From the IMG/VR virus record IMGVR_UViG_3300025732_000021, positions 1 through 64,000 of that record: 64,000 bases of DNA; one strand, 5' to 3'. The position numbers and the translations under genes are program-made. The notes below the pieces were generated by a model. That model worked only from the letters and a program-made list of their open reading frames with translations, was not told where the DNA came from and ran no database searches. Positions 30,872-62,793 of the stretch are shown here, one piece after another; within the stretch, counting starts at the first letter, position 1, and every line of letters starts with the position of its first letter. Source of the stretch: a virus.

Positions 30872-31057
30872 TTAGTTTATTTTTTGTCCAAACAACCAAC
30901 CACTGTGAATTCCGATGAGTGGGGCGTCAATATTTACAGCAATCCCCTGTGGCAGTGAACTTGAGAATGTTGAAATAAAAGTTTCAACTGTTTCTTTGTT
31001 AGGTAGATTTATAGTCTTAGTTTCTCCGTTAGTTGTTGTTAGTCTTACTGGTATCAT
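30872..31057 (-). CDS. Small early-region protein
   Basis: AAAGGAG SD upstream. Confidence 0.6.
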   Translation of the reverse strand: MIPVRLTTTNGETKTINLPNKETVETFISTFSSSLPQGIAVNIDAPLIGIHSGWLFGQKIN

Positions 31058-31172
31058 TTTTATTTTCTCCTTTGTTTATTGTATCATAATGTGAGCGGTC
31101 ATAGTTAGCAATTGTGCCACCATTTTCTAAGTGGGCTTTTCTGCGTAGTTGTTCTGCTGAGTAGTTAGCCAT
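31029..31172 (-). CDS. Small early-region protein (47 aa)
   Basis: Manual translation MANYSAEQLRRKAHLENGG...; overlaps its neighbours. Confidence 0.45.
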   Translation of the reverse strand: MANYSAEQLRRKAHLENGGTIANYDRSHYDTINKGENKNDTSKTNNN

Positions 31173-31281
31173 TGGCTACACACTCGCAAGGTTCTACATC
31201 ATAATCGGTATCGTTACCCCAAAAGATAACTCCGTGTCCATAGCATTCATCGCATTCAATTCTAGTTAGTGCGTTTATCAT
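31165..31281 (-). CDS. Mini zinc-finger protein (38 aa)
   Basis: MINALTRIECDECYGHG...YDVEPCEC; AGAAAGGA SD; resembles 34039..34251. Confidence 0.6.
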   Translation of the reverse strand: MINALTRIECDECYGHGVIFWGNDTDYDVEPCECVANG

Positions 31282-31305
31282 TTATTTATCCTTTCTAATA
31301 ATGTA

Positions 31306-31327
31306 ATTCTATCAGGTAGCACTGACA
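31306..31327 (-). promoter_or_regulatory. PafBC/RecA-NDp-like promoter
   Basis: TGTCAG-tgctacctga-TAGAAT. Confidence 0.7.
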
Positions 31328-31331
31328 AGGT

Positions 31332-31508
31332 TTAGCCTTGCCAATGTGGAGAGTAATCTCCGTCACCCACCTCTGTGGTGAGTATTGTATAGCCATTTGA
31401 TACTAGGCTATCTAATAGGTTATTTATTTGATACTCGCTAACCATAAGGCGATTTGATACAGAAACAAGGGTGTCTCCCTTTTCTGCTGTGTAACTAAGT
31501 GTTTTCAT
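31332..31508 (-). CDS. Small early-region protein (58 aa)
   Basis: Manual translation MKTLSYTAEKG...; AGAAAGGA SD. Confidence 0.6.
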   Translation of the reverse strand: MKTLSYTAEKGDTLVSVSNRLMVSEYQINNLLDSLVSNGYTILTTEVGDGDYSPHWQG

Positions 31509-31536
31509 TTAGTTATCCTTTCTATTTAGTAATCTT

Positions 31537-31558
31537 ATCCTATACCCTGCCACTGACA
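31537..31558 (-). promoter_or_regulatory. PafBC/RecA-NDp-like promoter
   Basis: TGTCAG-tggcagggta-TAGGAT. Confidence 0.7.
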
Positions 31559-31597
31559 AATTGGGGTGTCTGTGGGGTGTGTCCCCTGTGATTTATA

Positions 31598-31687
31598 TCA
31601 CTCGTGGATACACTCACTCTCAATCTCATGTCCAAACTCTGAGACGAGTTCCTCGTAAATTTCATCCATATAATCTAAAAAGTCCAT
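31598..31687 (-). CDS. Acidic mini-protein (29 aa)
   Basis: MDFLDYMDEIYEELVSEFGHEIESECIHE; GAAAGGT SD; TTGACT-17-TAGACT promoter. Confidence 0.5.
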   Translation of the reverse strand: MDFLDYMDEIYEELVSEFGHEIESECIHE

Positions 31688-31774
31688 AATTTAGACCTAA
31701 CCTTTCTTAATTTCTAATACTGGAAGTCTAACATAAAAATATCAAAAAGTCAAGTCCTATTGCGGCGTGTCGTG

Positions 31775-31878
31775 TGTGATTTACACCACATGGCTGCGAC
31801 ACTCCCGAGTGCGTCGGCCAAATGTCCGTTTTGTACCTTTTATGTGTGTGGTTTAAGTCACATGTGAGGTACATCACA
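31775..31878. promoter_or_regulatory. Cluster of CRP/GlxR-like boxes (TGTGA-N6-TCACA) in a divergent promoter region
   Basis: 31775 (1 mismatch), 31847 (1 mismatch) and 31863 (perfect), plus 31587 (1 mismatch). Confidence 0.65.
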
Positions 31879-31911
31879 AAGTCCTAAATGTCCGTTTTGT
31901 ACCCCCAAAAA

Positions 31912-31933
31912 TGTCAGACCCCCCTGCTAGAAT
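31912..31933 (+). promoter_or_regulatory. PafBC/RecA-NDp-like promoter
   Basis: TGTCAG-acccccctgc-TAGAAT. Confidence 0.7.
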
Positions 31934-31967
31934 ACTTGTATTAGATAAAAGAAAGGTAGGTCAAAAA

Positions 31968-32165
31968 ATGACTACACTAAATAGAAATGAAATAGTAGAT
32001 TTGCTAATTGAAAAAGGTATCTGCGTGACAGATAACATCTGCGTATTCTGTTCACTACAAATGGACGGGTGGGATAGCATCTGTCGTAGATGTAGAGAAT
32101 ACAAAGGTGTAATGAACATAGTAAAAGCCATAGAACACTATGACTTAGAAATTATTGGATACTAA
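31968..32165 (+). CDS. Small zinc-ribbon protein
   Basis: CVFC...CRRC; GAAAGGTAGG SD. Confidence 0.65.
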   Translation: MTTLNRNEIVDLLIEKGICVTDNICVFCSLQMDGWDSICRRCREYKGVMNIVKAIEHYDLEIIGY

Positions 32166-32182
32166 AGAAAGGTAAATAAATA

Positions 32183-32392
32183 ATGTCTATTGAAATTTTT
32201 GAAATGAATAAAAGCGGTGCTGGTTGGGTATCGCTAGAAAATGCTTCTGCTGATACTAAATTAGATTTAGAATTAGCAATACTAACAAAAGCAGAAATGA
32301 AAATGCTCTGCTTCAAATGCCATGTTGAAATCCCTCGTGGTAATGTTTGCGTAAATCATAAAAATGTAAAAGGAGCAATTTACTTTGAATAA
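32183..32392 (+). CDS. Small early protein with CxxC...CxxH
   Basis: GAAAGGT SD. Confidence 0.65.
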   Translation: MSIEIFEMNKSGAGWVSLENASADTKLDLELAILTKAEMKMLCFKCHVEIPRGNVCVNHKNVKGAIYFE

Positions 32393-32411
32393 AATGAAAG
32401 GAGTAACTAAA

Positions 32412-32534
32412 ATGGTTACAGAAAAAGTAAAACGAATTCAAGAATTGCGTCGTAGCAATGCTGCAACAGCAATTCCTTCAAAGAAAAAATATTCACGAAA
32501 AGTAAAACACAAAAATAAATTTACTGATTTGTGA
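32412..32534 (+). CDS. Small basic protein (40 aa)
   Basis: MVTEKVKRIQELRRSNAA...KKKYSRKVKHK; GAAAGGAG SD. Confidence 0.6.
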   Translation: MVTEKVKRIQELRRSNAATAIPSKKKYSRKVKHKNKFTDL

Positions 32535-32585
32535 TCACAAAAATTTGCCGACCCCCGCGTTCGGGCGTGTCGCATTTACGGGGTT

Positions 32586-32601
32586 TGTGATTTTTCTCAC
32601 A
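32586..32601. promoter_or_regulatory. CRP-like box
   Basis: Perfect TGTGA-tttttc-TCACA. Confidence 0.65.
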
Positions 32602-32649
32602 AAAATAATTTCAAAAATGTCCGATTTATCCGCATTTTGGATTTGATTT

Positions 32650-32671
32650 TGTCAGATAAAAATGCTAAACT
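32650..32671 (+). promoter_or_regulatory. PafBC/RecA-NDp-like promoter (also has a TTGATT -35)
   Basis: TGTCAG-ataaaaatgc-TAAACT. Confidence 0.7.
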
Positions 32672-32702
32672 TACAGAGTAAGAAAATGAAAGAAGGTAAA
32701 AA

Positions 32703-32903
32703 ATGAGTGCTAATTTATACTCAATTCCAAGCCTATTAGTAGGCAAAACTTATCGTTCCAATTCCCTTGTTGGAGAAATTGTATCAGCAGAAAAACACCC
32801 TGCTTGCGTATGGTATGAAAACGCTGAGGCGTATCTTGTTGAAGTTAGAAATCAAAATGGCGGTTATGCTTACCGCACACTAGCAGTTAGGAATGATGAA
32901 TAA
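32703..32903 (+). CDS. Small SH3-like early protein
   Basis: LLVG..YR...GEI..AEK; paralog of 33790..33990. Confidence 0.65.
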   Translation: MSANLYSIPSLLVGKTYRSNSLVGEIVSAEKHPACVWYENAEAYLVEVRNQNGGYAYRTLAVRNDE

Positions 32904-33015
32904 TGAAATTAGATGAATTCAAGGCTCTCATTGAAACACAGCGAAAAGCGCAAAAATTGACAAACCTAGAAAAAATTGCTAAAATAGTAAAAACGAAAGA
33001 AAAGGAAAATAACTA

Positions 33016-33270
33016 ATGACTAACGCAACCTATACAGACTACCCATTCACCTCTAATGGTGTAAATTTTATCTCTCGCATTGCTGACCATTCGCCATTCT
33101 TAGGCGCTATCAAAAACCTGCCTGCGGATGTATTTATTCAGATGAACATTCAAGCAGTAACAGAAATGCTTGGTGACGCTTCACTATTTACTCGTGATGA
33201 ATTACTTGCTGAACTCGATAGAGTAAATGAGGGAGCCACTCACTCATGGATTTTGTTAGGAGATGAATAG
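33016..33270 (+). CDS. Hypothetical early protein
   Basis: AAAGGA SD. Confidence 0.65.
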   Translation: MTNATYTDYPFTSNGVNFISRIADHSPFLGAIKNLPADVFIQMNIQAVTEMLGDASLFTRDELLAELDRVNEGATHSWILLGDE

Positions 33271-33463
33271 AATGACGCTAACTAAAACACATTTCAAGGC
33301 TATCGCTTCAATCCTCGCAGATGTAAAAGATGAAATTCATCCGCAAGTCTATGAGGATTTGGTAGAAGGCTTTTCAACTTATTTCGGAACTAAAAACGAA
33401 TTATTTGATAAGGCAAAATTCGAAACTGCTTGCGGTGTTGATGAGTTAGGAATTATTTCATGA
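33263..33463 (+). CDS. Hypothetical early protein
   Basis: LTKTHFKAIA...N..FD..KF..ACG pattern, common in small phage proteins. Confidence 0.65.
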   Translation: MNRMTLTKTHFKAIASILADVKDEIHPQVYEDLVEGFSTYFGTKNELFDKAKFETACGVDELGIIS

Positions 33464-33650
33464 CAAGATTTCTAACTACACTTGTTCAAATTTCGTTATG
33501 GCTTTCAATTTATTTTATAATTAAAATTGCCAAAAAAGAAATTTAAATTTAAAACATGCGAAATCTGCGGTAGAATTTTTGTCGCAGATCTAAAATGTTT
33601 TGTATGCGCTGCTAAACAATAGTTGAACTTTCAACAAAAATGTCGGCCCC

Positions 33651-33670
33651 TTATCCACAGGTTATCCACA
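33651..33670 (+). promoter_or_regulatory. Two tandem perfect DnaA boxes
   Basis: TTATCCACA at 33651-33659 and 33662-33670, intergenic. Confidence 0.6.
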
Positions 33671-33789
33671 GGCTGTTAAGATGTGATTAAAAACACACCC
33701 AAAATTTTTCTTAAATTACGGCGTGTCGATTTGATTTTATAAAATAAAAATGATAGGCTAGAAGCCTGAAAATAAAGAAAGGAAATTCA

Positions 33790-33990
33790 ATGAGAAGTTA
33801 TTCAATTGAAGATTTACTTGTAGGTCAGTATTATAGACCTACCTCTTATGCCCGTAAATTTCAGGGCGGAGAAATAAACTTTGCTGAAAAGCGAGATGAT
33901 GTATGGGTAGGTACTGATTATCAGGCTTATTCAATTAGGTTCAATGGCTCTAAATGGGCTACTATTGCGGTTCGTGTGTCTGACTTGTAA
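33790..33990 (+). CDS. Small SH3-like early protein
   Basis: AGAAAGGA SD; TTGATT-17-TAGGCT promoter; paralog of 32703..32903. Confidence 0.65.
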   Translation: MRSYSIEDLLVGQYYRPTSYARKFQGGEINFAEKRDDVWVGTDYQAYSIRFNGSKWATIAVRVSDL

Positions 33991-33991
33991 T

Positions 33992-34013
33992 TGTCAGACC
34001 ACTATGGTAAGAT
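33992..34013 (+). promoter_or_regulatory. PafBC/RecA-NDp-like promoter
   Basis: TGTCAG-accactatgg-TAAGAT. Confidence 0.7.
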
Positions 34014-34038
34014 TTTTATATAAAGAAAGGAAATAAAA

Positions 34039-34251
34039 ATGGATAAATTGGAATACGCACTACGCACAATTCAGAATTGTAATTTGTGTAATGGAAAAGG
34101 TGTTGATTACTTCGGTAATGGAGATGCCTATGATTTTGAGGATTGTATTTGTAATCCTTATGGGCTAATCTTAGATGAAGATGGCTCAGTTATTTTTGAC
34201 AATGGCTTACTAAGTGAGCCTGAACTATTTGCTACTATGGAGGCTAACTAA
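34039..34251 (+). CDS. Small zinc-finger protein
   Basis: CNLCNGKG...CIC; AGAAAGGA SD. Confidence 0.65.
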   Translation: MDKLEYALRTIQNCNLCNGKGVDYFGNGDAYDFEDCICNPYGLILDEDGSVIFDNGLLSEPELFATMEAN

Positions 34252-34252
34252 A

Positions 34253-34534
34253 ATGGGAAGTAATTTTGCTAATGATTTATCAGACATGGATAATTTAGAC
34301 ATTGAACAACAGATAGGAATTCACTTATCTGCTAATCACTACCCGCCCGTTCCTAAGTCTATGGTTCAGCCTTGTGTTGAGGCTATTGACATGGTTAATG
34401 ATTTAGGACTATGGGACGCTTACATTACCCTGCCAGAAGGCATATCGTGGCAAGGTAAGAATTTTGCCCCTGCTTCTGCTATTATTGAAGCACACCACCT
34501 AGATGCGTGGATTATTGAAAGAGAGGAATACTAA
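34253..34534 (+). CDS. Hypothetical early protein
   Basis: HL..NHYPPVP...C..AI...HHL motif; GGAGG SD. Confidence 0.65.
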   Translation: MGSNFANDLSDMDNLDIEQQIGIHLSANHYPPVPKSMVQPCVEAIDMVNDLGLWDAYITLPEGISWQGKNFAPASAIIEAHHLDAWIIEREEY

Positions 34535-34535
34535 A

Positions 34536-34745
34536 ATGGAATACACTTATGCGCTTACTACTTCGTATGACGGAGAATTGGTAAATACTATGCGAGTATC
34601 AGATATGCTAACTGCTGTTGATGCGTGGGAAAAATGCGTGGACTTTGGAGATGCTAAAGAATACGCAACCTATAATCTATCTGACCCAACAGGTAAAATG
34701 TATACAAAAACTTTTTATCGTAACGGAGAGGTTGTTATTCGATAA
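34536..34745 (+). CDS. Hypothetical early protein
   Basis: GAGG SD. Confidence 0.6.
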   Translation: MEYTYALTTSYDGELVNTMRVSDMLTAVDAWEKCVDFGDAKEYATYNLSDPTGKMYTKTFYRNGEVVIR

Positions 34746-34973
34746 ATGTCTGATACAATGATGAACATGGAACTTGTCTTTGCTGATTATCTTCTGCCAA
34801 ACCAATTGGCGGAAGGTGATCTAATAAAGGTCGATGAACAATATCTAACAGTAAAAGAAATATCAGAAACTAAAGAAGGTTTCAATTTAGTTTTACTTGA
34901 TGACTTTGATGATGAGGTTGAGACCTTTGTTGGTGATGATGATAAACTTGAGTGGTATGTTTTTATAGAATAA
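34746..34973 (+). CDS. Hypothetical acidic early protein
   Basis: Abuts the previous ORF. Confidence 0.55.
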   Translation: MSDTMMNMELVFADYLLPNQLAEGDLIKVDEQYLTVKEISETKEGFNLVLLDDFDDEVETFVGDDDKLEWYVFIE

Positions 34974-35097
34974 ACATTCACATAATGAAAATGCAATATA
35001 TATTTTTAGCATGGATGATATTGTTCTTTTTTCTTATTCAATAAATCCCCGCAAAAGTGCTCGGCCCGCAAAACATAGATTTGTCAAGTTACGACTT

Positions 35098-35113
35098 TGT
35101 GATTAAGGTCACA
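35098..35113. promoter_or_regulatory. CRP-like box
   Basis: Perfect TGTGA-ttaagg-TCACA upstream of an early promoter. Confidence 0.65.
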
Positions 35114-35204
35114 TTAAAAAACCTCCCAAAATCCCCCCTTGATTTGTATTTCTTGTATTTTTTTGCTAAACTTATACTAAGACCCAAAACAGAAAGGAAA
35201 ACAA

Positions 35205-35372
35205 ATGACACTAGGCGGATACACTTATCAGGTAGGCGATTTATTCACTACTAGCAAGACAGGTGTTACAGGTCGTATTGAGAAGTTCGTTCCAATGCGC
35301 CACAATGTTACAAAGGTCATGCTTCGCTTGGCAAATAATCAAACTAGATTTGCTATGGTCAAAACCTACTAA
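35205..35372 (+). CDS. Small SH3-like protein (55 aa)
   Basis: MTLGGYTYQVGDLFTTSKTGVTGRI...; AGAAAGGA SD; absent from the ORF track. Confidence 0.65.
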   Translation: MTLGGYTYQVGDLFTTSKTGVTGRIEKFVPMRHNVTKVMLRLANNQTRFAMVKTY

Positions 35373-35470
35373 TCTCAAAATGTGAGAAATGTCAGGTTTC
35401 GACTTGACATTATCTCTCAAAAATGTCATAATAATACAAGTAATAACAACAACTAATAAAGGAGAAAGAA

Positions 35471-35638
35471 ATGGCAGTAAAGAACGCACAATACAAGGTT
35501 GGCGACACCTACACCTCACAGAAGTCAAAGGTGACAGGCGTTATCACAGAAATCAAGCCAAACACAGACGGAACTTCTGTTCGTGTCAAACTTGATGTCA
35601 ATGGCACACCTCGCTGGACTACTTGGACAGCAAAGTAA
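35471..35638 (+). CDS. Small SH3-like protein (55 aa), paralog of 35205..35372
   Basis: MAVKNAQYKVGDTYTSQKSKVTGVI...; AAGGAG SD; TTGACA-17-CATAAT promoter. Confidence 0.65.
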   Translation: MAVKNAQYKVGDTYTSQKSKVTGVITEIKPNTDGTSVRVKLDVNGTPRWTTWTAK

Positions 35639-35655
35639 TTTAGCAAACGCTAACG

Positions 35656-35686
35656 CCACCTGAGCAAGTGGAGGCTAAACTGCTCA
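35656..35686 (+). ncRNA. H-type pseudoknot motif, copy 1
   Basis: CCAC-CTGAGCAA-GTGG-aggcTAAAC-TGCTCA. Confidence 0.7.
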
Positions 35687-35755
35687 CTTGATTTTCTATC
35701 GTAGAAATGCTATGATAGTGTAAGACCCAAAAACCCAAAAAGAAAGGAAACACCA

Positions 35756-36178
35756 ATGGCTAGAAATGGCAAAGCGATAAATGTAAAAATCGCTACAACT
35801 AAGGTTATCAAGGCACTAGAAAGCGCACTTGATAAACTAAATAAAGACTTCGCTTCACAAGAGGCGAACGAAGCAAAGCACGACAAGGCAGTAAAGGCTT
35901 GGAACAAGGAAGTCGCTAAATTAGCACTTGATAAAATTGCTAAGGCAGAGGACTTATCTGCTCATAAGAGATACAATAACGAAATCCAAGTATCTTTCTC
36001 TCTACCTGCTGGAACTATCACGCTACCTGATGAACCCAAGAAAGACTATGTGTCTATTCATGAGTGGCAGTATCGTGAGCAGAAAGAGGAAATTGAGAAC
36101 GCAATTCGTATTCTCAAGATGACAGATGAGGAAGTAGTTTCTACTTCTACTTACAACGCTATCGCAAGATACTTGTAA
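35756..36178 (+). CDS. Hypothetical coiled-coil early protein
   Basis: AGAAAGGA SD; TTGATT-17-TATGAT promoter. Confidence 0.7.
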   Translation: MARNGKAINVKIATTKVIKALESALDKLNKDFASQEANEAKHDKAVKAWNKEVAKLALDKIAKAEDLSAHKRYNNEIQVSFSLPAGTITLPDEPKKDYVSIHEWQYREQKEEIENAIRILKMTDEEVVSTSTYNAIARYL

Positions 36179-36184
36179 AATTAC

Positions 36185-36212
36185 TTTCCTGAGCATGAAA
36201 TAAAACTGCTTA
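36185..36212 (+). ncRNA. H-type pseudoknot motif, copy 2
   Basis: TTTC-CTGAGCAT-GAAA-TAAAAC-TGCTTA. Confidence 0.7.
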
Positions 36213-36363
36213 AAGTTTTTCTCTCCTGATAAGCACTACTAAACAATGAAGTGATCGCAGGGTCCTTGTAGTTATTCCTGGAGAGATTGTCATAGCAGGT
36301 TTTGAATGTGTAATCGCAATTGCCCCTGCTATGACCACCCCCCCTTTTTTTGGGGCCGATCCG

Positions 36364-36379
36364 TGTGATGTAAATCACA
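36364..36379. promoter_or_regulatory. CRP-like box
   Basis: Perfect TGTGA-tgtaaa-TCACA. Confidence 0.65.
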
Positions 36380-36466
36380 GTCCATTATGTGAGATTATTT
36401 ACGACTTTGATTTGTATTTCTGCCCTAAAAATGATATTATTAGATTATAGAAAGAAAGGAAACAAA

Positions 36467-36742
36467 ATGATAGCAACAATGCTAGAACTACAAAACGCAA
36501 CACAAGAAGCGGTTCATGATGAAATCATAATGAGCATGGCTTCTGCTATTTATCATCACAAAGACGAAATGTCATCAGAGGAATTCGCTAGGGCTTTATT
36601 TGAGTATTCCGCAGCACTTTCAGCAATGACAACTACACTCGTGACCCATGTATTATTGACAGAATCAGAATTAGGTGTTATGCTTGATACTATTAGAGAA
36701 TTTGATGAACTAGGAAAGGATATCACAAATGGAGACAACTAA
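36467..36742 (+). CDS. Hypothetical early protein
   Basis: GAAAGAAAGGA SD before ATG 36467. Confidence 0.65.
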   Translation: MIATMLELQNATQEAVHDEIIMSMASAIYHHKDEMSSEEFARALFEYSAALSAMTTTLVTHVLLTESELGVMLDTIREFDELGKDITNGDN

Positions 36743-37187
36743 CGAAGTACTGGTACCTGAGCACTACAATGCAAATCAACTTGTAACTTATAAGAAGATT
36801 GAAAATGATGTAGTATCATTTCCTACTATCAAGGTTAATGACCTTGAATGGGAACTGGACCGTAAGCGCTTATTGCAAAAACAAATCGATGAACTTAATT
36901 ATACAATTAGTCGAATCACCGATAACATGACTGAGGAATCCTGGTATAACCCAAATACAGAGGCTGCAGAAATTTTAAATGATTTGTGTGAAATCCTTGG
37001 CCATAATCCAGTGAAGACAATTGATTTCACTGCAAACGTAACAATTAATGGTCAAATTGATATTCCAATGAATGAGGTCGAAGATTTTGATTTAGATTCA
37101 TTTATCTTTGATGTTGTTTCAATTGACACATATCACGGTAATGTTGAAATTCATGATTGGGACGTAAATTCTGTAGAAGAGTGTTAA
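36729..37187 (+). CDS. Hypothetical acidic early protein
   Basis: GAAAGGA SD; overlaps the upstream ORF. Confidence 0.65.
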   Translation: METTNEVLVPEHYNANQLVTYKKIENDVVSFPTIKVNDLEWELDRKRLLQKQIDELNYTISRITDNMTEESWYNPNTEAAEILNDLCEILGHNPVKTIDFTANVTINGQIDIPMNEVEDFDLDSFIFDVVSIDTYHGNVEIHDWDVNSVEEC

Positions 37188-37264
37188 ATATTTGCAGGGT
37201 TCATGAAAGGCCCTGCAATGTACGCAGCATCCCTCTTTCATCCTTTCTTTCAGGGATCTGCAAG

Positions 37265-37293
37265 GGACCTGAGCATGTCCACGTAAACTGCTC
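37265..37293 (+). ncRNA. H-type pseudoknot motif, copy 3
   Basis: GGAC-CTGAGCAT-GTCC-acgTAAAC-TGCTC. Confidence 0.7.
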
Positions 37294-37379
37294 CCTTCCA
37301 AAAAGTGGTCGGCCCGTTTTGTACTAAATGTCCGTTTTACGTAGTTACGAGCAAATCGCCCAAATTCAGGACTTGATTT

Positions 37380-37401
37380 TGTCAGCCCATTGTGCTAAGA
37401 T
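37380..37401 (+). promoter_or_regulatory. PafBC/RecA-NDp-like promoter
   Basis: TGTCAG-cccattgtgc-TAAGAT. Confidence 0.7.
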
Positions 37402-37432
37402 TAGAATAACTAAAAATAGAAAGGAAATAAAT

Positions 37433-38440
37433 ATGGCTCATGAATTAGAATCTGCTAATTCTTTCGCTTCATTCCGTGAACCTGCTTGGCATGGTTTAGG
37501 AACTGTTTTTCAGGAGGAAGTTACTACTGAAAAAATGTTAGAACTCGCTAACCTTGATGGTTGGAATGTTCGTCTTGAAGATGTAGAAATCCCATCTACT
37601 CTTACATCTGATAAATCTTATCAATATGTTGTGCGTGATAATCCATTCACAGCAAATCAAGTTGATGTTCTTGGTGTTGTAGGTGAGCGTTATGTCCCAC
37701 TACAAAATGAAGAACTATTCACATTCGGTGACGCAATTCTTGATGGCGGAGGTCGTTGGGAAACTGCTGGTTCATTGCGTAATGGTCGTGTTGTATTCGG
37801 TTCTCTCGCTCTTGAGCGTGAAACTGTTCTTGACCCAAATGGCGTAGCGGATAAAATCAAAACTTATCTTCTTGTCAATACATCACATGATGGCTCAATC
37901 GCTATTCAAGCAAGCGTAACACCTGTTCGTGTTGTATGCGCTAACACTCTCGCTGTTGCGTTAGGTCGCACTAAGAAAAAGAATGGTGTCAAGCAATCTT
38001 TCAAGATTCGCCACACACAATCTGCTGAGGGTAAGGTTCAACAGGCTCGTGAGGCTCTTGCTGTTGCTAATGCCTACATGGACGAATTTTCTATCATGGC
38101 TAAACTCATGATTGAAAAAGAAATCACAGCACAACAATTCAATGATATTGTTCTTGCTGCGTATCCTAAACCTGATGAAACTAAGAAAGGCGCACTTTCT
38201 AAGTGGACAAATAAAGTTGACCTAATCAATGATATTTACACAGGTGAATTCAATGGCATGATTGCTAATACAGCATGGGGTGCTTGGAACGCACTTACAG
38301 AACGAATCGATTGGTATCGTGGTGGTAAGCGTGGTCTTACTGAATCAATTCTAATGGGTTCAAGTGGTTTTGACCCTGCTATTACAGCAGAAAAAAATCG
38401 TTTGCTAAATGTTGTTCGCAACACTTTAGAATTAGTATAA
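37433..38440 (+). CDS. DUF932 / LGT_TIGR03299 family phage-plasmid protein
   Basis: MAHEL...PAWHGLG...ETAGSL.NG..VF...NTSHDGS...TPVRVVCANTL...HT. Confidence 0.85.
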   Translation: MAHELESANSFASFREPAWHGLGTVFQEEVTTEKMLELANLDGWNVRLEDVEIPSTLTSDKSYQYVVRDNPFTANQVDVLGVVGERYVPLQNEELFTFGDAILDGGGRWETAGSLRNGRVVFGSLALERETVLDPNGVADKIKTYLLVNTSHDGSIAIQASVTPVRVVCANTLAVALGRTKKKNGVKQSFKIRHTQSAEGKVQQAREALAVANAYMDEFSIMAKLMIEKEITAQQFNDIVLAAYPKPDETKKGALSKWTNKVDLINDIYTGEFNGMIANTAWGAWNALTERIDWYRGGKRGLTESILMGSSGFDPAITAEKNRLLNVVRNTLELV

Positions 38441-38449
38441 ACTAATTCA

Positions 38450-38477
38450 ACTCCTGAGCATGAGTATAAACTGCTCA
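38450..38477 (+). ncRNA. H-type pseudoknot motif, copy 4
   Basis: ACTC-CTGAGCAT-GAGT-ATAAAC-TGCTCA. Confidence 0.7.
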
Positions 38478-38961
38478 ATTTTTTATTTGACAAAAGATCA
38501 AAAAAGTGGCCGACTAAAAATATCATCTAATGTTTTTATTACGTAGGACTTGACTTTTCCCCCAAATTTTGGTATTCTAAATTTATGACCCAAACTAAAA
38601 CACCACTATATGTGGACGAACTAATAATGAAAATCTATGAGGATAATTATTCTCATTTTGATTTTATAGAAAACATGAATGGTGGAGATTGTGATTGTAA
38701 TCTTCATTTTGCTATCAACCTTATCTACGAATATGTGAGGGATTAATGCTAGGATATACAGTTGAGCAGGTAGAGAATATGGCTACAGTTTTAAACTATT
38801 CTTTACATCATCATATTAAGGATACTAAGTTTGCAGAGGAAGACAAAGCAGTTCTTAGAGATCTAGAAGATTTATTACTAGGATTATTAGCAGAGGGACG
38901 TGTTTGACATCCCCTTGATAATTTGCTAGAATAATACAAGACCTAATAGAAAGGACCCACA

Positions 38962-39648
38962 ATGCCAAATTGGTGTTATAACTATCTATCTGCGGAGGGA
39001 CCTGTAGATGAGATATCAAAACTAAAACAACAACTCAATAAACCATTCACTAAGGTTCACGACCAATGGAATCCTGAGACTGGGCAAATGGAATTGACAG
39101 AAACAACATATTCAAATCCTATATTTGCATTTCATAACATCTATAACCATATTCAAGACGGTGTATCTGAAGAAGAGTACATCAAACAACCTGACCACTC
39201 ATTACCATTAGCAGAAGCATTGAAGTTTGAGGGTAATCATTGGTACGACTGGAATGTACGCCATTGGGGAACTAAATGGGACGTTGCTGTTCATGATGAT
39301 AGAGAGTATTCAGATACTGAGATAACAGATGAAAGCGATAGTTCTATTGGTTATAAATTCAATACCGCTTGGTCTCCACCACATCCTATTATTCATACGT
39401 TGTCAGAGCAATATCCTAATATAAAGTTTACCTTATCTTATGAAGAAGAAACAGGTTGGGGTGGCGAGACTATAATTGTTGCTGGTATGGAAGAATCACA
39501 CGAATCATACGGTTGGAAATGTAGAGAATGTGACCATGCTGAGGAAGAAACACCATACTGTGAAGAATGTGATTTTGACACATGCCCTTCGTGTGGGTAT
39601 AATGAAGCAGACGAACCATGCGAGGAGCACAGAGAGGAACATCAATGA
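38962..39648 (+). CDS. YubB/DUF1281-like ferredoxin-fold protein with a C-terminal Zn ribbon
   Basis: MPNWC, WYDWN..HWGTKWD, FNTAWSPP and CxxC motifs; TTGACA-17-TAGAAT promoter. Confidence 0.75.
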   Translation: MPNWCYNYLSAEGPVDEISKLKQQLNKPFTKVHDQWNPETGQMELTETTYSNPIFAFHNIYNHIQDGVSEEEYIKQPDHSLPLAEALKFEGNHWYDWNVRHWGTKWDVAVHDDREYSDTEITDESDSSIGYKFNTAWSPPHPIIHTLSEQYPNIKFTLSYEEETGWGGETIIVAGMEESHESYGWKCRECDHAEEETPYCEECDFDTCPSCGYNEADEPCEEHREEHQ

Positions 39649-39860
39649 TTGATTATATAAAAAACTATCTTCAATTACATATGCAGTCTTTGAATCAGGA
39701 CCTAGAAGTATTATCTAATAAAATGGATGAGTTAGACCCTGCCTCAAAAGACTTTGCTGAATTAGATATTGAATATAACTTTATAAGTGGACAAGCAACT
39801 GGTATTAGCCATATAATTGCTGTAATAATGGAAAAGGAGGAAGAAAATGGAACTAACTGA
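39645..39860 (+). CDS. Hypothetical protein
   Basis: GAGG SD; ATGA overlap with the upstream stop. Confidence 0.6.
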   Translation: MIDYIKNYLQLHMQSLNQDLEVLSNKMDELDPASKDFAELDIEYNFISGQATGISHIIAVIMEKEEENGTN

Positions 39861-40113
39861 TAATCTACAAAAGCAAGTAGACATTGGCAGCAGTGGCCTT
39901 GACATCATGCACGGTGAACTCAAATGGCTTATGAAAGAGGCTGAAGAGCAACTGGAATTAGCACAAGAAGCAGAGAACCAATCTGGGGAGGCTATGGATT
40001 CCATGGACCGCACATATTGGCAGGGACAGTTAGACGCTTTATCTCACGTATATTCTCTAACTTATCAATTATCATTCGCTATAGCAGAAAGGGAAGACAA
40101 TGGAAGAAACTAA
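39847..40113 (+). CDS. Hypothetical protein
   Basis: AAGGAGG SD. Confidence 0.6.
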   Translation: MELTDNLQKQVDIGSSGLDIMHGELKWLMKEAEEQLELAQEAENQSGEAMDSMDRTYWQGQLDALSHVYSLTYQLSFAIAEREDNGRN

Positions 40114-40331
40114 AACATATGAGGTAGAAATCATTCACGAGCCTTCTGGGATCTATATGAACTTTACTACAGAACTAGAAGGAGACCATATTGATGACGA
40201 GAACGCTTGGGAATTCGTAATGGATGAACTCTCAGTTATTTGTAATAGGATAGAATAATGTATGAGCAGTTGATATTAGACCTAGAATTTGATATCATGG
40301 AAGAAAACCCTACTACCGAAAGGACCCTATA

Positions 40332-40688
40332 ATGGGAGCACGTTGTACATTCGTTTTTAAGCAATCAGAGGACCAGGCAGTTGCCTTATACAGCCATTGG
40401 GGCGAGTACTCCATGTATGAAGACCTGGCAGCAGCCTTGCAGCATGCAGCACCACGTCTTGGCGATGAGTCATACTACGTACGTATGGCTGTAAGTTATC
40501 TAATTAAGGATAGTATTATGGATGAGACTGGGTATGGAATTTATGCCTGCAATCCTAACGACCTTGGATTTATGGACCACCCCGTACTAATCGACTTAAT
40601 TAATAAGACTGTAACTGATGACACTGGGACACATTCTATACAAGATTTTATTAACTACCATAATCTTGTGACGACGGTCACATCATAA
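40332..40688 (+). CDS. Hypothetical phage protein
   Basis: MGAR...LYSHWG motif; GAAAGGA SD. Confidence 0.65.
   Translation: MGARCTFVFKQSEDQAVALYSHWGEYSMYEDLAAALQHAAPRLGDESYYVRMAVSYLIKDSIMDETGYGIYACNPNDLGFMDHPVLIDLINKTVTDDTGTHSIQDFINYHNLVTTVTS
40667..40682. promoter_or_regulatory. CRP-like box
   Basis: Perfect TGTGA-cgacgg-TCACA at the 3' end of the ORF. Confidence 0.5.
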
Positions 40689-40709
40689 AGAGGGTTGGGT
40701 CCCCTCTAC

Positions 40710-40753
40710 GGGAGCGCATGTTTGTCGTGGGCTTGCGCTCCCCCTTTCTTTTT
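40710..40753 (+). terminator. Intrinsic terminator
   Basis: GGGAGCGCA...TGCGCTCCC stem followed by a T-rich tail; preceded by an AGAGGG/CCCTCT hairpin. Confidence 0.6.
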
Positions 40754-40776
40754 GATACAATGATGATAGGAGAACT

Positions 40777-40992
40777 ATGATTAGACGACACAGACTAACT
40801 GACGAGGAAAAAGTTGCCATGCGACTTTCTGCCCTTGTTTCTGACCTGCGCCTTGACATCGAACAGGTTGGTGAGTATTTGGCAGTAATAGCACCAACAG
40901 TTTCCTACAACAGACTTATCACAATAGCCCAAAGCGCACAATACCACAAAGAGGAGAAATACAATGAGCAATACCAATACAGACTTTTCTGA
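40777..40992 (+). CDS. Hypothetical protein
   Basis: AGGAG SD. Confidence 0.6.
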   Translation: MIRRHRLTDEEKVAMRLSALVSDLRLDIEQVGEYLAVIAPTVSYNRLITIAQSAQYHKEEKYNEQYQYRLF

Positions 40993-41233
40993 TAAGTGTA
41001 ACATCTTGGGAGATTTATGGTGTAACTATAAAGGTGATGTTGACTTCTCTGACTTCATAGAGTACAATGACATTGGTTTGCCATTAGCATTTGCTATCTC
41101 ACAAGAAATTGTTCCTGCCACTGATATGGCAACTAACTATGTAAATGAAACATGGGATTTATTTTTAGAAAGCCTTGAAGTAAAAGATAAGGGTTTCAAA
41201 ACTTTAGATGAAATCCTGGGTCCACTTGCATAA
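40964..41233 (+). CDS. Hypothetical protein
   Basis: GAGGAG SD. Confidence 0.6.
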   Translation: MSNTNTDFSDKCNILGDLWCNYKGDVDFSDFIEYNDIGLPLAFAISQEIVPATDMATNYVNETWDLFLESLEVKDKGFKTLDEILGPLA

Positions 41234-56942: not shown

Positions 56943-57148
56943 GTTTCTCCTTTGATATTGTTTGGATGATCCATTGGTGTTGGAATGGTCATTAATGTAT
57001 CACACTCACTACACTCTCCATCTAAGAAATACATTCCAACTTCATAGTCAACTGGATCAAATATAACTTTAACCTTTATTATTTTTGATCCACACAAGGG
57101 ACAACAAGCAGAAGGAATGCCTCTTAAATCTAGTTTATTCTGTTTCAT
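56939..57148 (-). CDS. Zinc-ribbon protein
   Basis: DLRG.P...CPLCG...ECSEC. Confidence 0.65.
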   Translation of the reverse strand: MKQNKLDLRGIPSACCPLCGSKIIKVKVIFDPVDYEVGMYFLDGECSECDTLMTIPTPMDHPNNIKGET

Positions 57149-58679
57149 AAAATTTTTCTTTTAGTATTTCAAAATGCGACTTAGAATTATCTACAATACT
57201 ATCCCAATTTTTCTTTGCCTCTAATCTCTTACTAAAATATTCATCCATTTTAGTTTTTATATCAGAGTTATTAAAGTGCGACATTTTTTCTAATAAACTA
57301 ATATATGTTTTGTGGAAAGGCCTTATGCCAAATCCAGTTTTAATTGTATCAACATTTTTATTTGCCCACTCAACTGATGATTTAAAATAGTTTTCTGGAT
57401 ATTTTTTTGAAGTTATATGCTTCCAATATGGCGTATCTTCTCTTTGAGATAATGCATAATGCATTCCAACAAAATCAAACATTCTTTCAATTCTAGTTTT
57501 TGTCTTATAGTTAAAATTATCTATATCGTATTGTGTTACATGCTCTCTTTCAAGAGCATCAACCAAAGTAAAACAATTTTGATGAGTTAGTAACAATCCA
57601 GTACTTTCTAATGGTTCTAAAAATCCTGCAGATAATCCAATAGCAACTACATTTTTAACCCAAAATCTGTCATAATACCCATTAGTAATTTTTATATTTT
57701 TAAAAGTTAAATTTTTAGATCTATTTGGATCATGAACTACCATTTTGTCTGAATCTAAATAATTTTTATATTCTTCTAATGCATCATCATCTGAAATAAA
57801 TTCATTACAGTATACGTACCCAGAGCCTATTCTATTCCATAAAGGAATATTCCAAATCCACCCATTATTTATAGCAGTACAATTTGTAAAAGTTTGTAAT
57901 TCTTTCTCTTTATCAGTATATGGAATATGTGCAGTCCATGCTCTATTATTTGGAAGGTATTCAGCAGTAGAAATAAATTTTTCTTTCATAAAATTACCCA
58001 AAAGGATACTTTTAAATCCAGAACAATCTATAAATAAGTCAGCATAAACTTTAGTGCCATTGTCTAAAAGTATAGATGTTATACCATTTTCATTTCCATC
58101 AATATCAGTAACTGTACCAAATATTCTATTTACACCCCTGGGGATAGCATAATATTCTGCAAGCCAGTTACCAAGTTTAGTAGCATCCATCTGCAATGCT
58201 AAATCCCTATGAGGCTGATATGGATTCATTGAGTCTATATGATCAATTACAAGTTTGTTTGTTTCCATGCTTTTAGCCTGCGGGAAAAAATATCTTACAT
58301 AATCTTGATCTTCTGTTTTTGGATAAAATGCTTTTTTATAATGCCAATCATCAAGTCCATAATGTGTTATTTCTGGGTCTAAATTGGGGTGTCCAAACGG
58401 ATAATAAAATGTTGGCGAATCTTTAGTTTTAAAGTTAGTAAAACCTATTGCCACTTTATAGGCAGCATTTGTATATTTCATAATGCTTGAATAGTCTAAA
58501 TCTAAAAAATTAAAAAATCCATTTATTTCAAATGTAGTACTTTCTCCTACACCAATAATTGGAATATCTGTGCTTTCAATTAAAGAAATATTTTTTTCTG
58601 GGTATGCTTTTATTAGTGCAGATGCAGTCATCCATCCAGCAGAACCCCCGCCAACTATTACTATTTTATTAATTTGCAT
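57135..58679 (-). CDS. Flavin-dependent (tryptophan halogenase family) halogenase
   Basis: GGGSAGW, IGVGEST, conserved Lys in AAYK, FIDCSGF, WIWNIP, GFLEPLESTG. Confidence 0.9.
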   Translation of the reverse strand: MQINKIVIVGGGSAGWMTASALIKAYPEKNISLIESTDIPIIGVGESTTFEINGFFNFLDLDYSSIMKYTNAAYKVAIGFTNFKTKDSPTFYYPFGHPNLDPEITHYGLDDWHYKKAFYPKTEDQDYVRYFFPQAKSMETNKLVIDHIDSMNPYQPHRDLALQMDATKLGNWLAEYYAIPRGVNRIFGTVTDIDGNENGITSILLDNGTKVYADLFIDCSGFKSILLGNFMKEKFISTAEYLPNNRAWTAHIPYTDKEKELQTFTNCTAINNGWIWNIPLWNRIGSGYVYCNEFISDDDALEEYKNYLDSDKMVVHDPNRSKNLTFKNIKITNGYYDRFWVKNVVAIGLSAGFLEPLESTGLLLTHQNCFTLVDALEREHVTQYDIDNFNYKTKTRIERMFDFVGMHYALSQREDTPYWKHITSKKYPENYFKSSVEWANKNVDTIKTGFGIRPFHKTYISLLEKMSHFNNSDIKTKMDEYFSKRLEAKKNWDSIVDNSKSHFEILKEKFYETE

Positions 58680-61154: not shown

Positions 61155-61595
61155 TTATACTCTTCCAATATGATCACTACAGATTCCAGCCATCTGCATA
61201 TTTAAAACATCTGCGGTTGGCATTTCTTGATGAACCAAAATACTTTTTGGTGTAACTGGCATACCAGGGTATGTCCATATATAATGATTAGTAGTTATTG
61301 TAAAATCATCTTCTTGGTGCCAAAACGCATTATAATATTTTGGCATTGATAAAACTAAATCTAAGGCTTCTAAATTTTTACAATGAATCCATAACTTTTT
61401 AATATAAGAATTTAAAAAATATATGTCGATCTCATATGTTGGTTTATCATGTCCTAAATACATTTTATTATTTACAAACCAAAAATCTATTTCAACATTG
61501 TATCCAGCATTTATAGCCTCAGCAATATAATCTGGGGAGTTTTCTCTTGATTCATTTTTACCATATAGATTACCCCTATGTGATATTTTAATCAT
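61155..61595 (-). CDS. PI-PLC/GDPD-like phosphodiesterase (minimal)
   Basis: ISHRGN...EN...G.NVEID...LGHD...WIHCKN...GICSD. Confidence 0.75.
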   Translation of the reverse strand: MIKISHRGNLYGKNESRENSPDYIAEAINAGYNVEIDFWFVNNKMYLGHDKPTYEIDIYFLNSYIKKLWIHCKNLEALDLVLSMPKYYNAFWHQEDDFTITTNHYIWTYPGMPVTPKSILVHQEMPTADVLNMQMAGICSDHIGRV

Positions 61596-62793
61596 TAACA
61601 ATTCCCCACTTTTCTATAGCAGAAATATATTCTGGACCATAGGACTTATCTATAGCCTGCCTCATGGCCATAGTGCCCCCTAAAGTGCCACCAGAATGCC
61701 CGTGGATGGCTCCTCCTACGTTTGCCATATAGTTTATACCAAACCTTCTGCTTATAGCCTCTACAAGGCCAGGATGCATTCCGCAACTTAGCGCTGGCAC
61801 AACATTATTATCATTTAATAAATCTATAGATCTTTTTAAATTATCTTCGTCATCACTTAAATACCCACCCCACATACCAGTATGTATCGTATCTACTCCC
61901 ATTAATGCTGCTAACTTACAAATAACATACCAATCAATTCTAAAATTATGACTAGGATTTGTTAATATCTTATCCCCGCTTTTTTGAAAATGCATATATA
62001 TTGGAAGATCCATTTTTCGTATAGAGTTATATGCTCCAAATCCGCTCCAGAAGTTTACATGTACACCATTACCACCATTTTCATATACTGTTTTTACTCT
62101 ATTTAAAATAGCATGTGGATCAGCATTAATACAATGAGCAAAAACTACCTTTCTTCCAGAATCTGCGATAATGTTAGCAATGTGCTCAACTCTTTCTTCT
62201 AGCCTACAAAATGTTGGGTTAGATAATATTTCATCTTCTTTAATAAAATCAACGCCACCATCAATTAACTCTTTAACTATATATCCTAGTTGTTTAACTG
62301 ATATTCCAGTTTTAGGTTTTACAATACCGCCTAACAATGGCTTATTTTTTTGTCCAGTTAACTCTCTTATTCCAGACATACCAAACTTAGGGCCAAGAAA
62401 ACTCTTTTTTACACTTTCTGGAAATTCAACATCTACCACTCTACATACTTTAAATACATCAATGTCTAATTGTCCACCCATAATCTGACATAAGAAATGC
62501 GAAATACCATCGTTATCCCAATCTGAATTTATTTTTGGAAAACCAATTTTAACAAAACCATTTAGTGCTAATTTTAATTTTTCTTCATCATCATAAATAA
62601 CACATGATGACATTTCAAATATATCATCAGTTTCCCAACTATTTCTTTGTTTTGGATTACCAACACTTTGTCCAATAGCAAGCGCCCATGCAGCATCATT
62701 TAATCTACCATGTGAAGGATTGACTTCTATATAATATGTTACAACTATACATCTTTGTTTTTCAGAGTCGTCTAAGTCTCTATAAAACTTCAT
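61588..62793 (-). CDS. RuBisCO-like protein (form IV RLP)
   Basis: GPKFG..GIR, IVKPKTG, GGVDFIKEDE, HTG, P.LS.G.H, GGAIHGH. Confidence 0.9.
   Translation of the reverse strand: MKFYRDLDDSEKQRCIVVTYYIEVNPSHGRLNDAAWALAIGQSVGNPKQRNSWETDDIFEMSSCVIYDDEEKLKLALNGFVKIGFPKINSDWDNDGISHFLCQIMGGQLDIDVFKVCRVVDVEFPESVKKSFLGPKFGMSGIRELTGQKNKPLLGGIVKPKTGISVKQLGYIVKELIDGGVDFIKEDEILSNPTFCRLEERVEHIANIIADSGRKVVFAHCINADPHAILNRVKTVYENGGNGVHVNFWSGFGAYNSIRKMDLPIYMHFQKSGDKILTNPSHNFRIDWYVICKLAALMGVDTIHTGMWGGYLSDDEDNLKRSIDLLNDNNVVPALSCGMHPGLVEAISRRFGINYMANVGGAIHGHSGGTLGGTMAMRQAIDKSYGPEYISAIEKWGIVND

Follow-up and report, generated by a model that had tools for sequence, protein, structure and literature searches.

Six copies of the element TGTCAG-N10-TANNNT in the virus record IMGVR_UViG_3300025732_000021 (IMG/VR) are best explained as genuine promoters of the PafBC (RecA-NDp) type, carried by an uncultured 122-kb phage that is probably a virulent actinophage of lake or fresh water. 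The stretch analysed here (the window) is the first 64 kb of this 121,867-bp record, which is rated complete, and all six elements lie in an island of small genes. We consider it rather probable that the sigma A polymerase of the host reads these promoters together with host PafBC, and that the island responds to single-stranded DNA. We infer PafBC as the factor, and single-stranded DNA arising from infection as the trigger.

Six box promoters in an island of small genes

The window holds seven exact matches to TGTCAG-N10-TANNNT, compared with a mean of 0.75 and a maximum of 3 in dinucleotide shuffles (seven or more in 0 of 100). Searching the whole 121,867-bp phage returned the same seven and no further ones, all within 8.1 kb of the genome, and a reversed-pattern control gave none. 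Other spacings from N4 to N19 yield 0-4 matches in the phage against the seven at N10, and relaxing the box to TGTCRG adds no site in the window. A sequence-only reading of this DNA had listed six of the sites by position and strand, and all six are present; the seventh, at 39401..39422 (+), was not on its list.

Gene positions relative to the sites derive from crude gene calls made for this analysis. By these calls the six listed sites are intergenic and each is directed at a gene, in agreement with the sequence-only reading: a start codon follows 24-34 nucleotides (nt) past the final T of the -10, with a Shine-Dalgarno sequence of the AGAAAGG type in between. The seventh match is probably due to chance, since it falls within gene 38962-39648, lacks TG before its -10 and has no start codon nearby.

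Three of the promoters have nothing resembling a -35 hexamer. P1 (31306..31327, - strand) consists of the box TGTCAGTG, N8 and TAGAAT, and faces a 38-residue gene with a CxxC pair (31165-31281). P2 (31537..31558, -) has the box TGTCAGTGGC and the -10 TAGGAT, and faces a 58-residue gene (31332-31508). P3 (31912..31933, +) has the box TGTCAGACCCCCC and the -10 TAGAAT, and faces genes 31968-32165, 32183-32392 and 32412-32534. The other three are hybrids, in which exactly 17 nt separate a -35-like hexamer from the -10. P4 (32643..32671, +; box pattern 32650-32671) reads TTGATT, T, TGTCAG, N10, TAAACT and faces gene 32703-32903. P5 (33985..34013, +; box pattern 33992-34013) reads TTGTAA, T, TGTCAG, N10, TAAGAT and faces gene 34039-34251 and the genes after it, its TTGTAA overlapping the stop codon of gene 33790-33990. 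P6 (37373..37401, +; box pattern 37380-37401) reads TTGATT, T, TGTCAG, N10, TAAGAT and faces the DUF932 gene (37433..38440, +; 335 residues; PF06067, 159.7 bits). An extended -10, with TG one base before the -10, is present at five of the six sites and absent at P2.

Conservation of the box across the phage family

Using the DUF932 protein, 161 relatives were found in IMG/VR, from which 80 loci were kept (1.32 Mb; 37% guanine plus cytosine, G+C). These loci contain 469 TGTCAG-N10-TANNNT sites, compared with 4-54 at most other spacings, and the N10 preference proposed for the element thus holds in its relatives as it does in the phage. The off-spacing peaks consist mostly of the same sites counted through a second TANNNT (at N16 this explains 124 of 136, at N15 42 of 51, at N5 50 of 54). 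TGTCGG also peaks at N10, with 34 sites versus 0-17 at other spacings, and no N10 peak was seen in the 80 loci for TGTCCG, TGTCTG or the reversed box. When all 18 single-base variants of TGTCAG were compared, TGTCGG alone was enriched at N10 (34 versus a mean of 1.8), the other 17 reaching at most 2.2-fold. At position 5, A is preferred over G in the family (92%).

The 503 TGTCRG sites, which number from 0 to 15 per locus, are arranged as promoters would be: 447 are co-oriented with DUF932, and 423 have a Shine-Dalgarno sequence and a start codon within 90 nt. A site lies within 150 nt of DUF932 in 57 of the 76 loci having enough upstream sequence. Together with the position of P6, this upholds the earlier claim that the DUF932 gene is among those driven by the box. 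In an alignment of 58 distinct orthologous DUF932 upstream regions, the TGTC, the -10, the TTG at -35 and an upstream ATGTCCG box are kept while the remainder drifts. An extended -10 TG is found at 71-77% of family sites, and the four bases 3' of the box are most often ACCC (64 of 405) or TGGC (46 of 405).

A wider scan of IMG/VR was seeded with one long form of the box, and its figures cover at least 120 stretches, 67 of them in this phage family and 53 unrelated. Among the matches listed, the 67 family loci hold 338 further N10 sites versus 2-18 at N8, N9, N11 and N12, and the 53 unrelated loci hold 8 N10 sites versus 1-8 at other spacings. Within the sampled IMG/VR matches listed, multi-copy use of the box is peculiar to this phage family.

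The PafBC motif and its counterpart in actinobacterial hosts

As published (PMC8635444), the PafBC motif is tGTCgg(N10)tA(N3)T, with the box at -23 to -28, an invariant GTC read by arginines 46 and 50 of PafB, and a 3' part that is the sigma A -10. The phage box, its N10 spacing and its lone A/G tolerance at position 5 match this motif, which is what the sequence-only reading had proposed. Judged by its distance from the -10, the phage box would have the PafBC placement at -28 to -23.

The same signal is found at host damage genes. Thirty recA loci were drawn from a class-level sample of 151 actinobacterial genomes, and in 23 of them TGTC[AG]G-N10-TANNNT lies a short way before recA, the box being TGTCGG in 17 and TGTCAG in 6. 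ACCC and TGGC are the commonest four bases after these 23 boxes, the same top two as in the phage family. Over its first 14 bases P2 agrees fully with the box before recA in one high-G+C genome (L203), and the first 13 bases of P3 are those of boxes in two small genomes.

We infer that the host belongs to a small-genome actinobacterial order, in which 38 of 41 sampled genomes are 1.5 Mb or smaller and the examined loci have 45-49% G+C; the small genomes and the G+C content suggest that this is probably 'Ca. Nanopelagicales'. A 507-residue phage protein of no Pfam family (76833-78356, -; L088:12833-14356) shares 35-37% identity over about 480 residues with a secreted protein of two members of the order, G088 and G130. 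Strong relatives of this protein occur in only 2 of the 151 class-level genomes, both of the small-genome order, and the relative in G088 and G130 itself sits behind a TGTCGG-N10 box. In the same two genomes the recA box is TGTCAGTGGC.CCTGCTACCTT, of the TGTCAG form, and eight look-alike sites in other members of the order are putatively recA boxes as well. A TGTCAG-form box also lies between lexA and nrdR in the candidate order, among LexA boxes. Further searches for a host or close relatives gave little: megablast of the island against deposited phages returned no match, tblastn of a phage tail protein returned scattered domain hits only and no host, a protein-atlas search with the phage WhiB protein returned viral clusters only, and aligning WhiB against the genome collection returned only phage-like contigs binned into lake metagenome-assembled genomes of many phyla.

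A search of five small-genome actinobacteria found a tandem pair of WYL-domain genes in four; the assembly of the fifth is incomplete. The G088 pair adjoins tatC. Among solved structures it matches best the chains of PafB and PafC in two M. smegmatis polymerase complexes, 7P5X and 9FND (E 2.5e-32 and 2.3e-28), and it keeps both DNA-reading arginines within a conserved RMFERDK stretch. The likely host order has PafB and PafC orthologues, and the host of this phage, if it belongs there, would probably have them as well.

Clusters of boxes in small-gene islands were also observed in the likely host order, in locus L264 (G186:C1:822749-825327), at 450-474 kb in G088 and at 439-471 kb in G130. In G186, 2.6 kb contain six boxes, and among these are two pairs set back to back (CTGACA-AATT-TGTCAG). 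No homology was found between the phage island proteins and these box-carrying host islands.

Hybrid promoters and accompanying upstream elements

Our phage promoters depart from the known type in their -35 region. Lack of a -35 element, a trait of PafBC promoters, is true of P1-P3, and P4-P6 have TTG hexamers at a 17-nt spacer. Across 417 distinct family sites, TTG lies 17 nt before the -10 in 117 and 18 nt before it in 55 (172 in total, about 41%), and is missing from 245 (59%). A G+C-rich flank (ACCC, TGGT, TGGC, TCCC or TGCC) is far commoner at sites without TTG than at those with it. Our reading is that two classes exist: activator-dependent promoters with a full host-like box, and hybrids that may be able to lean on sigma region 4.

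Other conserved elements lie upstream. A second box, ATGTCCGTTTTGTAC, is found at 31822..31836 (+), with further copies starting at 31888, 32617 and 37328; its place is 21-40 nt upstream of the TGTCAG box. Of 425 family contexts, 102 contain it in the form AAATGTCCG(A/T)TTT, whereas about 307 kb of host loci yielded a single, unrelated hit and no copy next to the host boxes. TGTCCG had been considered as a weak form of the TGTCAG box and was rejected, being unenriched at N10 (11 versus 9.8); it represents a separate upstream element instead. Exact TGTGA-N6-TCACA palindromes of the CRP/GlxR type were also noted upstream of P3 and P4 (31863-31878 and 32586-32601), and such a palindrome lies within 110 nt upstream in 107 of 425 family contexts. 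They suggest that host control has a second layer here.

The phage and its gene island

The phage genome has 33% G+C (27-41% within the window). From this value and from AGAAAGGA ribosome sites a low-G+C Gram-positive host was first assumed, which, had it stood, would have ruled out PafBC; the assumption was dropped on finding a Pfam-confirmed WhiB gene outside the window, at 65695-65979 (-) (PF02467, 45.6 bits against a Pfam cut-off of 23.6). WhiB is limited to actinobacteria and their phages and has been used to call freshwater actinophages (PMC6802176 and PMC10202952). The phage is thus, by its gene content, an actinophage. It encodes a portal, a prohead protease and ribonucleotide reductase, along with eight tRNA genes. 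In a six-frame domain search of the phage, neither a tyrosine integrase nor a serine recombinase domain was found, as would suit a virulent phage, and an equivalent search found no WYL, HTH_11 or Sigma70_r2 domain. Auxiliary genes were seen as well, for two tryptophan-halogenase-family proteins, a RuBisCO-like protein and a carbamoyltransferase (57135-58679, 61588-62793, L088:6434-7870 and L089:11664-13121). Lake metagenomes commonly contain the family, whose hosts are probably among the most abundant freshwater bacteria.

The island (30872..41233) comprises about 35 small genes, mostly without a family match; two short units run leftward and one long array runs rightward. Ten of its proteins were compared with PHROGs and ten with Pfam, and the only named matches were DUF932 and, in the gene after it (38962-39648), a DUF1281_C (Api92-like) domain (47 bits); two unnamed phage families were also matched. 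The island genes are probably early, a reading prompted by the many small genes without family match, the dense promoters and the DUF932- and DUF1281-type genes. In addition to the six box promoters, several ordinary -35/-10 promoters without the box are predicted near 31.1, 33.74, 35.15, 35.42, 35.70, 36.43 and 38.55 kb. Those at 35373-35470, 35639-35755, 36179-36466 and 38441-38745 include TTGACA-17-CATAAT, TTGATT-17-TATGAT, TTGTAT-17-TATTAT and TTGACT-17-TATTCT. Since the island holds such promoters, the TGTCAG box is not a general feature of promoters in this phage.

Twenty-four RNA runs contain a fraction of 0.07-0.19 of the sampled words. Four metatranscriptome runs from four studies have contigs at least 99% alike to parts of the island (for instance 36 of 120 in run X1 and 33 of 123 in run X4), the contigs having neither starts nor strands and DNA possibly being present; no conclusion on transcription, start sites or habitat is based on them.

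What reads the box

PafBC joins polymerase only where this already occupies a promoter of the kind, and must itself have bound single-stranded DNA to do so (PMC11804915). On the phage, the housekeeping RNA polymerase of the host (sigma A) would read the -10, usually with the extended TG, and PafBC, after binding single-stranded DNA, would be placed with sigma region 4 on one side and the TGTCAG box (about -28 to -23) on the other. Its action would turn on an island of small genes, DUF932 included, that are probably early and probably serve counter-defence. P1-P3, which are without a -35, should need the activator, and the hybrids P4-P6 could give a basal expression that PafBC then modulates.

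Several observations weigh against PafBC control. A -35-like TTG is present at about 41% of family sites and at three of the six window promoters, most of them with an extended -10, so that sigma A alone might suffice and these promoters may fire without PafBC; at the orthologous DUF932 promoters the TTG is kept in at least 90% of the 58 sequences. PafBC promoters have no -35 consensus (PMC8635444), which counts against the assignment for the hybrids. T1 and G6 of the box are invariant in the phage family, making it stricter than the mycobacterial consensus. On the host side, 41 genomes of the candidate order give 535 matches versus 404 for a reversed control, so that most host matches are noise, and the box is tied in hosts only to recA, lexA and a few islands; moreover the host order is our own assignment, and so is its name, which was chosen from genome size and G+C. 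Small phage proteins could still bind the box. Lastly, the RNA contigs show no transcript ends.

A rival explanation is that a phage protein, or a host factor other than PafBC, binds TGTCAG, activating those promoters that lack a -35 or shutting off the hybrids as a repressor; the resemblance to the PafBC motif would then be convergence. The island is full of small proteins without family match, several with CxxC pairs (31165-31281, 31968-32165, 32183-32392 and 34039-34251), and the phage has a WhiB gene. WhiB-family members bind region 4 of sigma A. The box of the hybrids sits in the spacer, a typical operator position, and the strictness of the phage box relative to the mycobacterial consensus would also agree with a dedicated factor. 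We nevertheless find such a factor unlikely. The same box, spacing, A/G choice and flank occur at recA and lexA of the candidate hosts, and the six-frame search of the phage gave no WYL, HTH_11 or sigma domain. Furthermore, the candidate island proteins are encoded downstream of the promoters that they would activate, and the WhiB gene is 28 kb away within a leftward gene block.

Alternatively, these could be ordinary extended -10 promoters of sigma A, constitutive from entry and without link to DNA damage, in which the box is a spacer feature read by the polymerase or by general factors. The TG before the -10 at 71-77% of family sites and the -35-like TTG at 41% agree with this, as does the presence in the island of box-free promoters that look functional. 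Those same ordinary promoters do without the box, however, and 59% of box promoters do without a -35; a spacer would not be expected to keep a strict N10 or an invariant TGTC, and in hosts the box marks the damage genes recA and lexA. We regard this explanation as distinctly unlikely. That the boxes are mainly decoys soaking up active PafBC and blunting the host damage response, with phage transcription secondary, is very improbable: up to 15 boxes per 21-kb locus, versus about 13 matches, mostly noise, per 1.4-Mb host genome, and the multiplication of phage copies by replication would favour it, but PafBC joins only promoter-bound polymerase and not naked DNA (PMC11804915), and 423 of the 503 boxes are placed to drive a gene.

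The alternatives are thus weakened by the box, spacing, A/G choice and flank shared with host damage genes, by the lack of a WYL, HTH_11 or sigma domain in the phage search, and by the box-free island promoters. Going beyond control by host PafBC, it is possible, if doubtful, that the phage uses the host's single-stranded-DNA alarm to sense attack on its own DNA. Promoters lacking a -35 would stay off until restriction, end-processing nucleases or early replication rounds produce short single strands. They would then fire a counter-defence and takeover set (DUF932, DUF1281-type and small zinc-ribbon proteins), with the hybrids providing a floor of expression.

Relation to known systems and significance

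The closest known counterparts are the PafBC promoters of Mycobacterium and other actinobacteria (PMC8635444, PMC6789036 and PMC11804915). Shared with them are the box tGTCgg, the 10-nt spacing and the tA(N3)T, the A/G at position 5, the G+C-rich flank and the housekeeping -10, and half of the phage promoters in the window likewise have no -35. The phage promoters differ in being on a virulent phage, in up to 15 copies per locus, before small genes without annotated function and not before repair genes; they also favour A over G at position 5 (92%), fix T1 and G6, and have a -35-like hexamer in about 41% of cases, and their dependence on PafBC is a prediction. The middle promoters of phage T4 (MotA box plus AsiA, 'sigma appropriation'), a parallel made in PMC8635444, are similar in that a box near -30 replaces or overrides the -35, host sigma reads the -10 and a class of phage genes is timed. 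T4, however, makes both factors and remodels sigma region 4, whereas here the domain search found no phage factor and the box belongs to the host.

Control of phage and prophage genes by LexA through the SOS box likewise ties phage genes to the DNA-damage state of the host. LexA acts by repression and its box is palindromic (TCGAAC-N4-GTTCGA in actinobacteria, also present next to lexA here), in contrast to the non-palindromic activator box found here within the promoters of a phage without integrase. The leading regions of conjugative plasmids are early-entering DNA with anti-defence genes and single-stranded promoters, and the co-occurrence of DUF932 and DUF1281 is reminiscent of them. Both are blocks of small genes including DUF932- and DUF1281-type proteins, maybe expressed on DNA entry, with single-stranded DNA as part of the signal. 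In the plasmids the single strand folds into a promoter, whereas the phage promoter would be double-stranded, with single-stranded DNA acting through PafBC as proposed.

No description of PafBC-type promoters on a phage was found in the open-access full texts searched; a 2025 study in ACS Infect Dis reportedly deals with pafBC and mycobacteriophage resistance. The promoter type is a known one; new are its carrier, its hybrid form and the large number of copies. PafBC with its sigma adaptation has been known only from the host's own repair genes. If our explanation is true, viral takeover would proceed without a viral transcription factor, and infection would be timed by DNA damage or by the way in which incoming DNA is processed. 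The hybrid promoters, which combine a -35 with the -26 box, lend themselves to asking how one promoter accommodates both PafBC and sigma region 4. Should the phage indeed sense attack on its DNA in this way, a virulent family abundant in lakes would have copied the signal of a host WYL-type activator up to 15 times, making an immune or repair sensor of the host the early switch of the phage.

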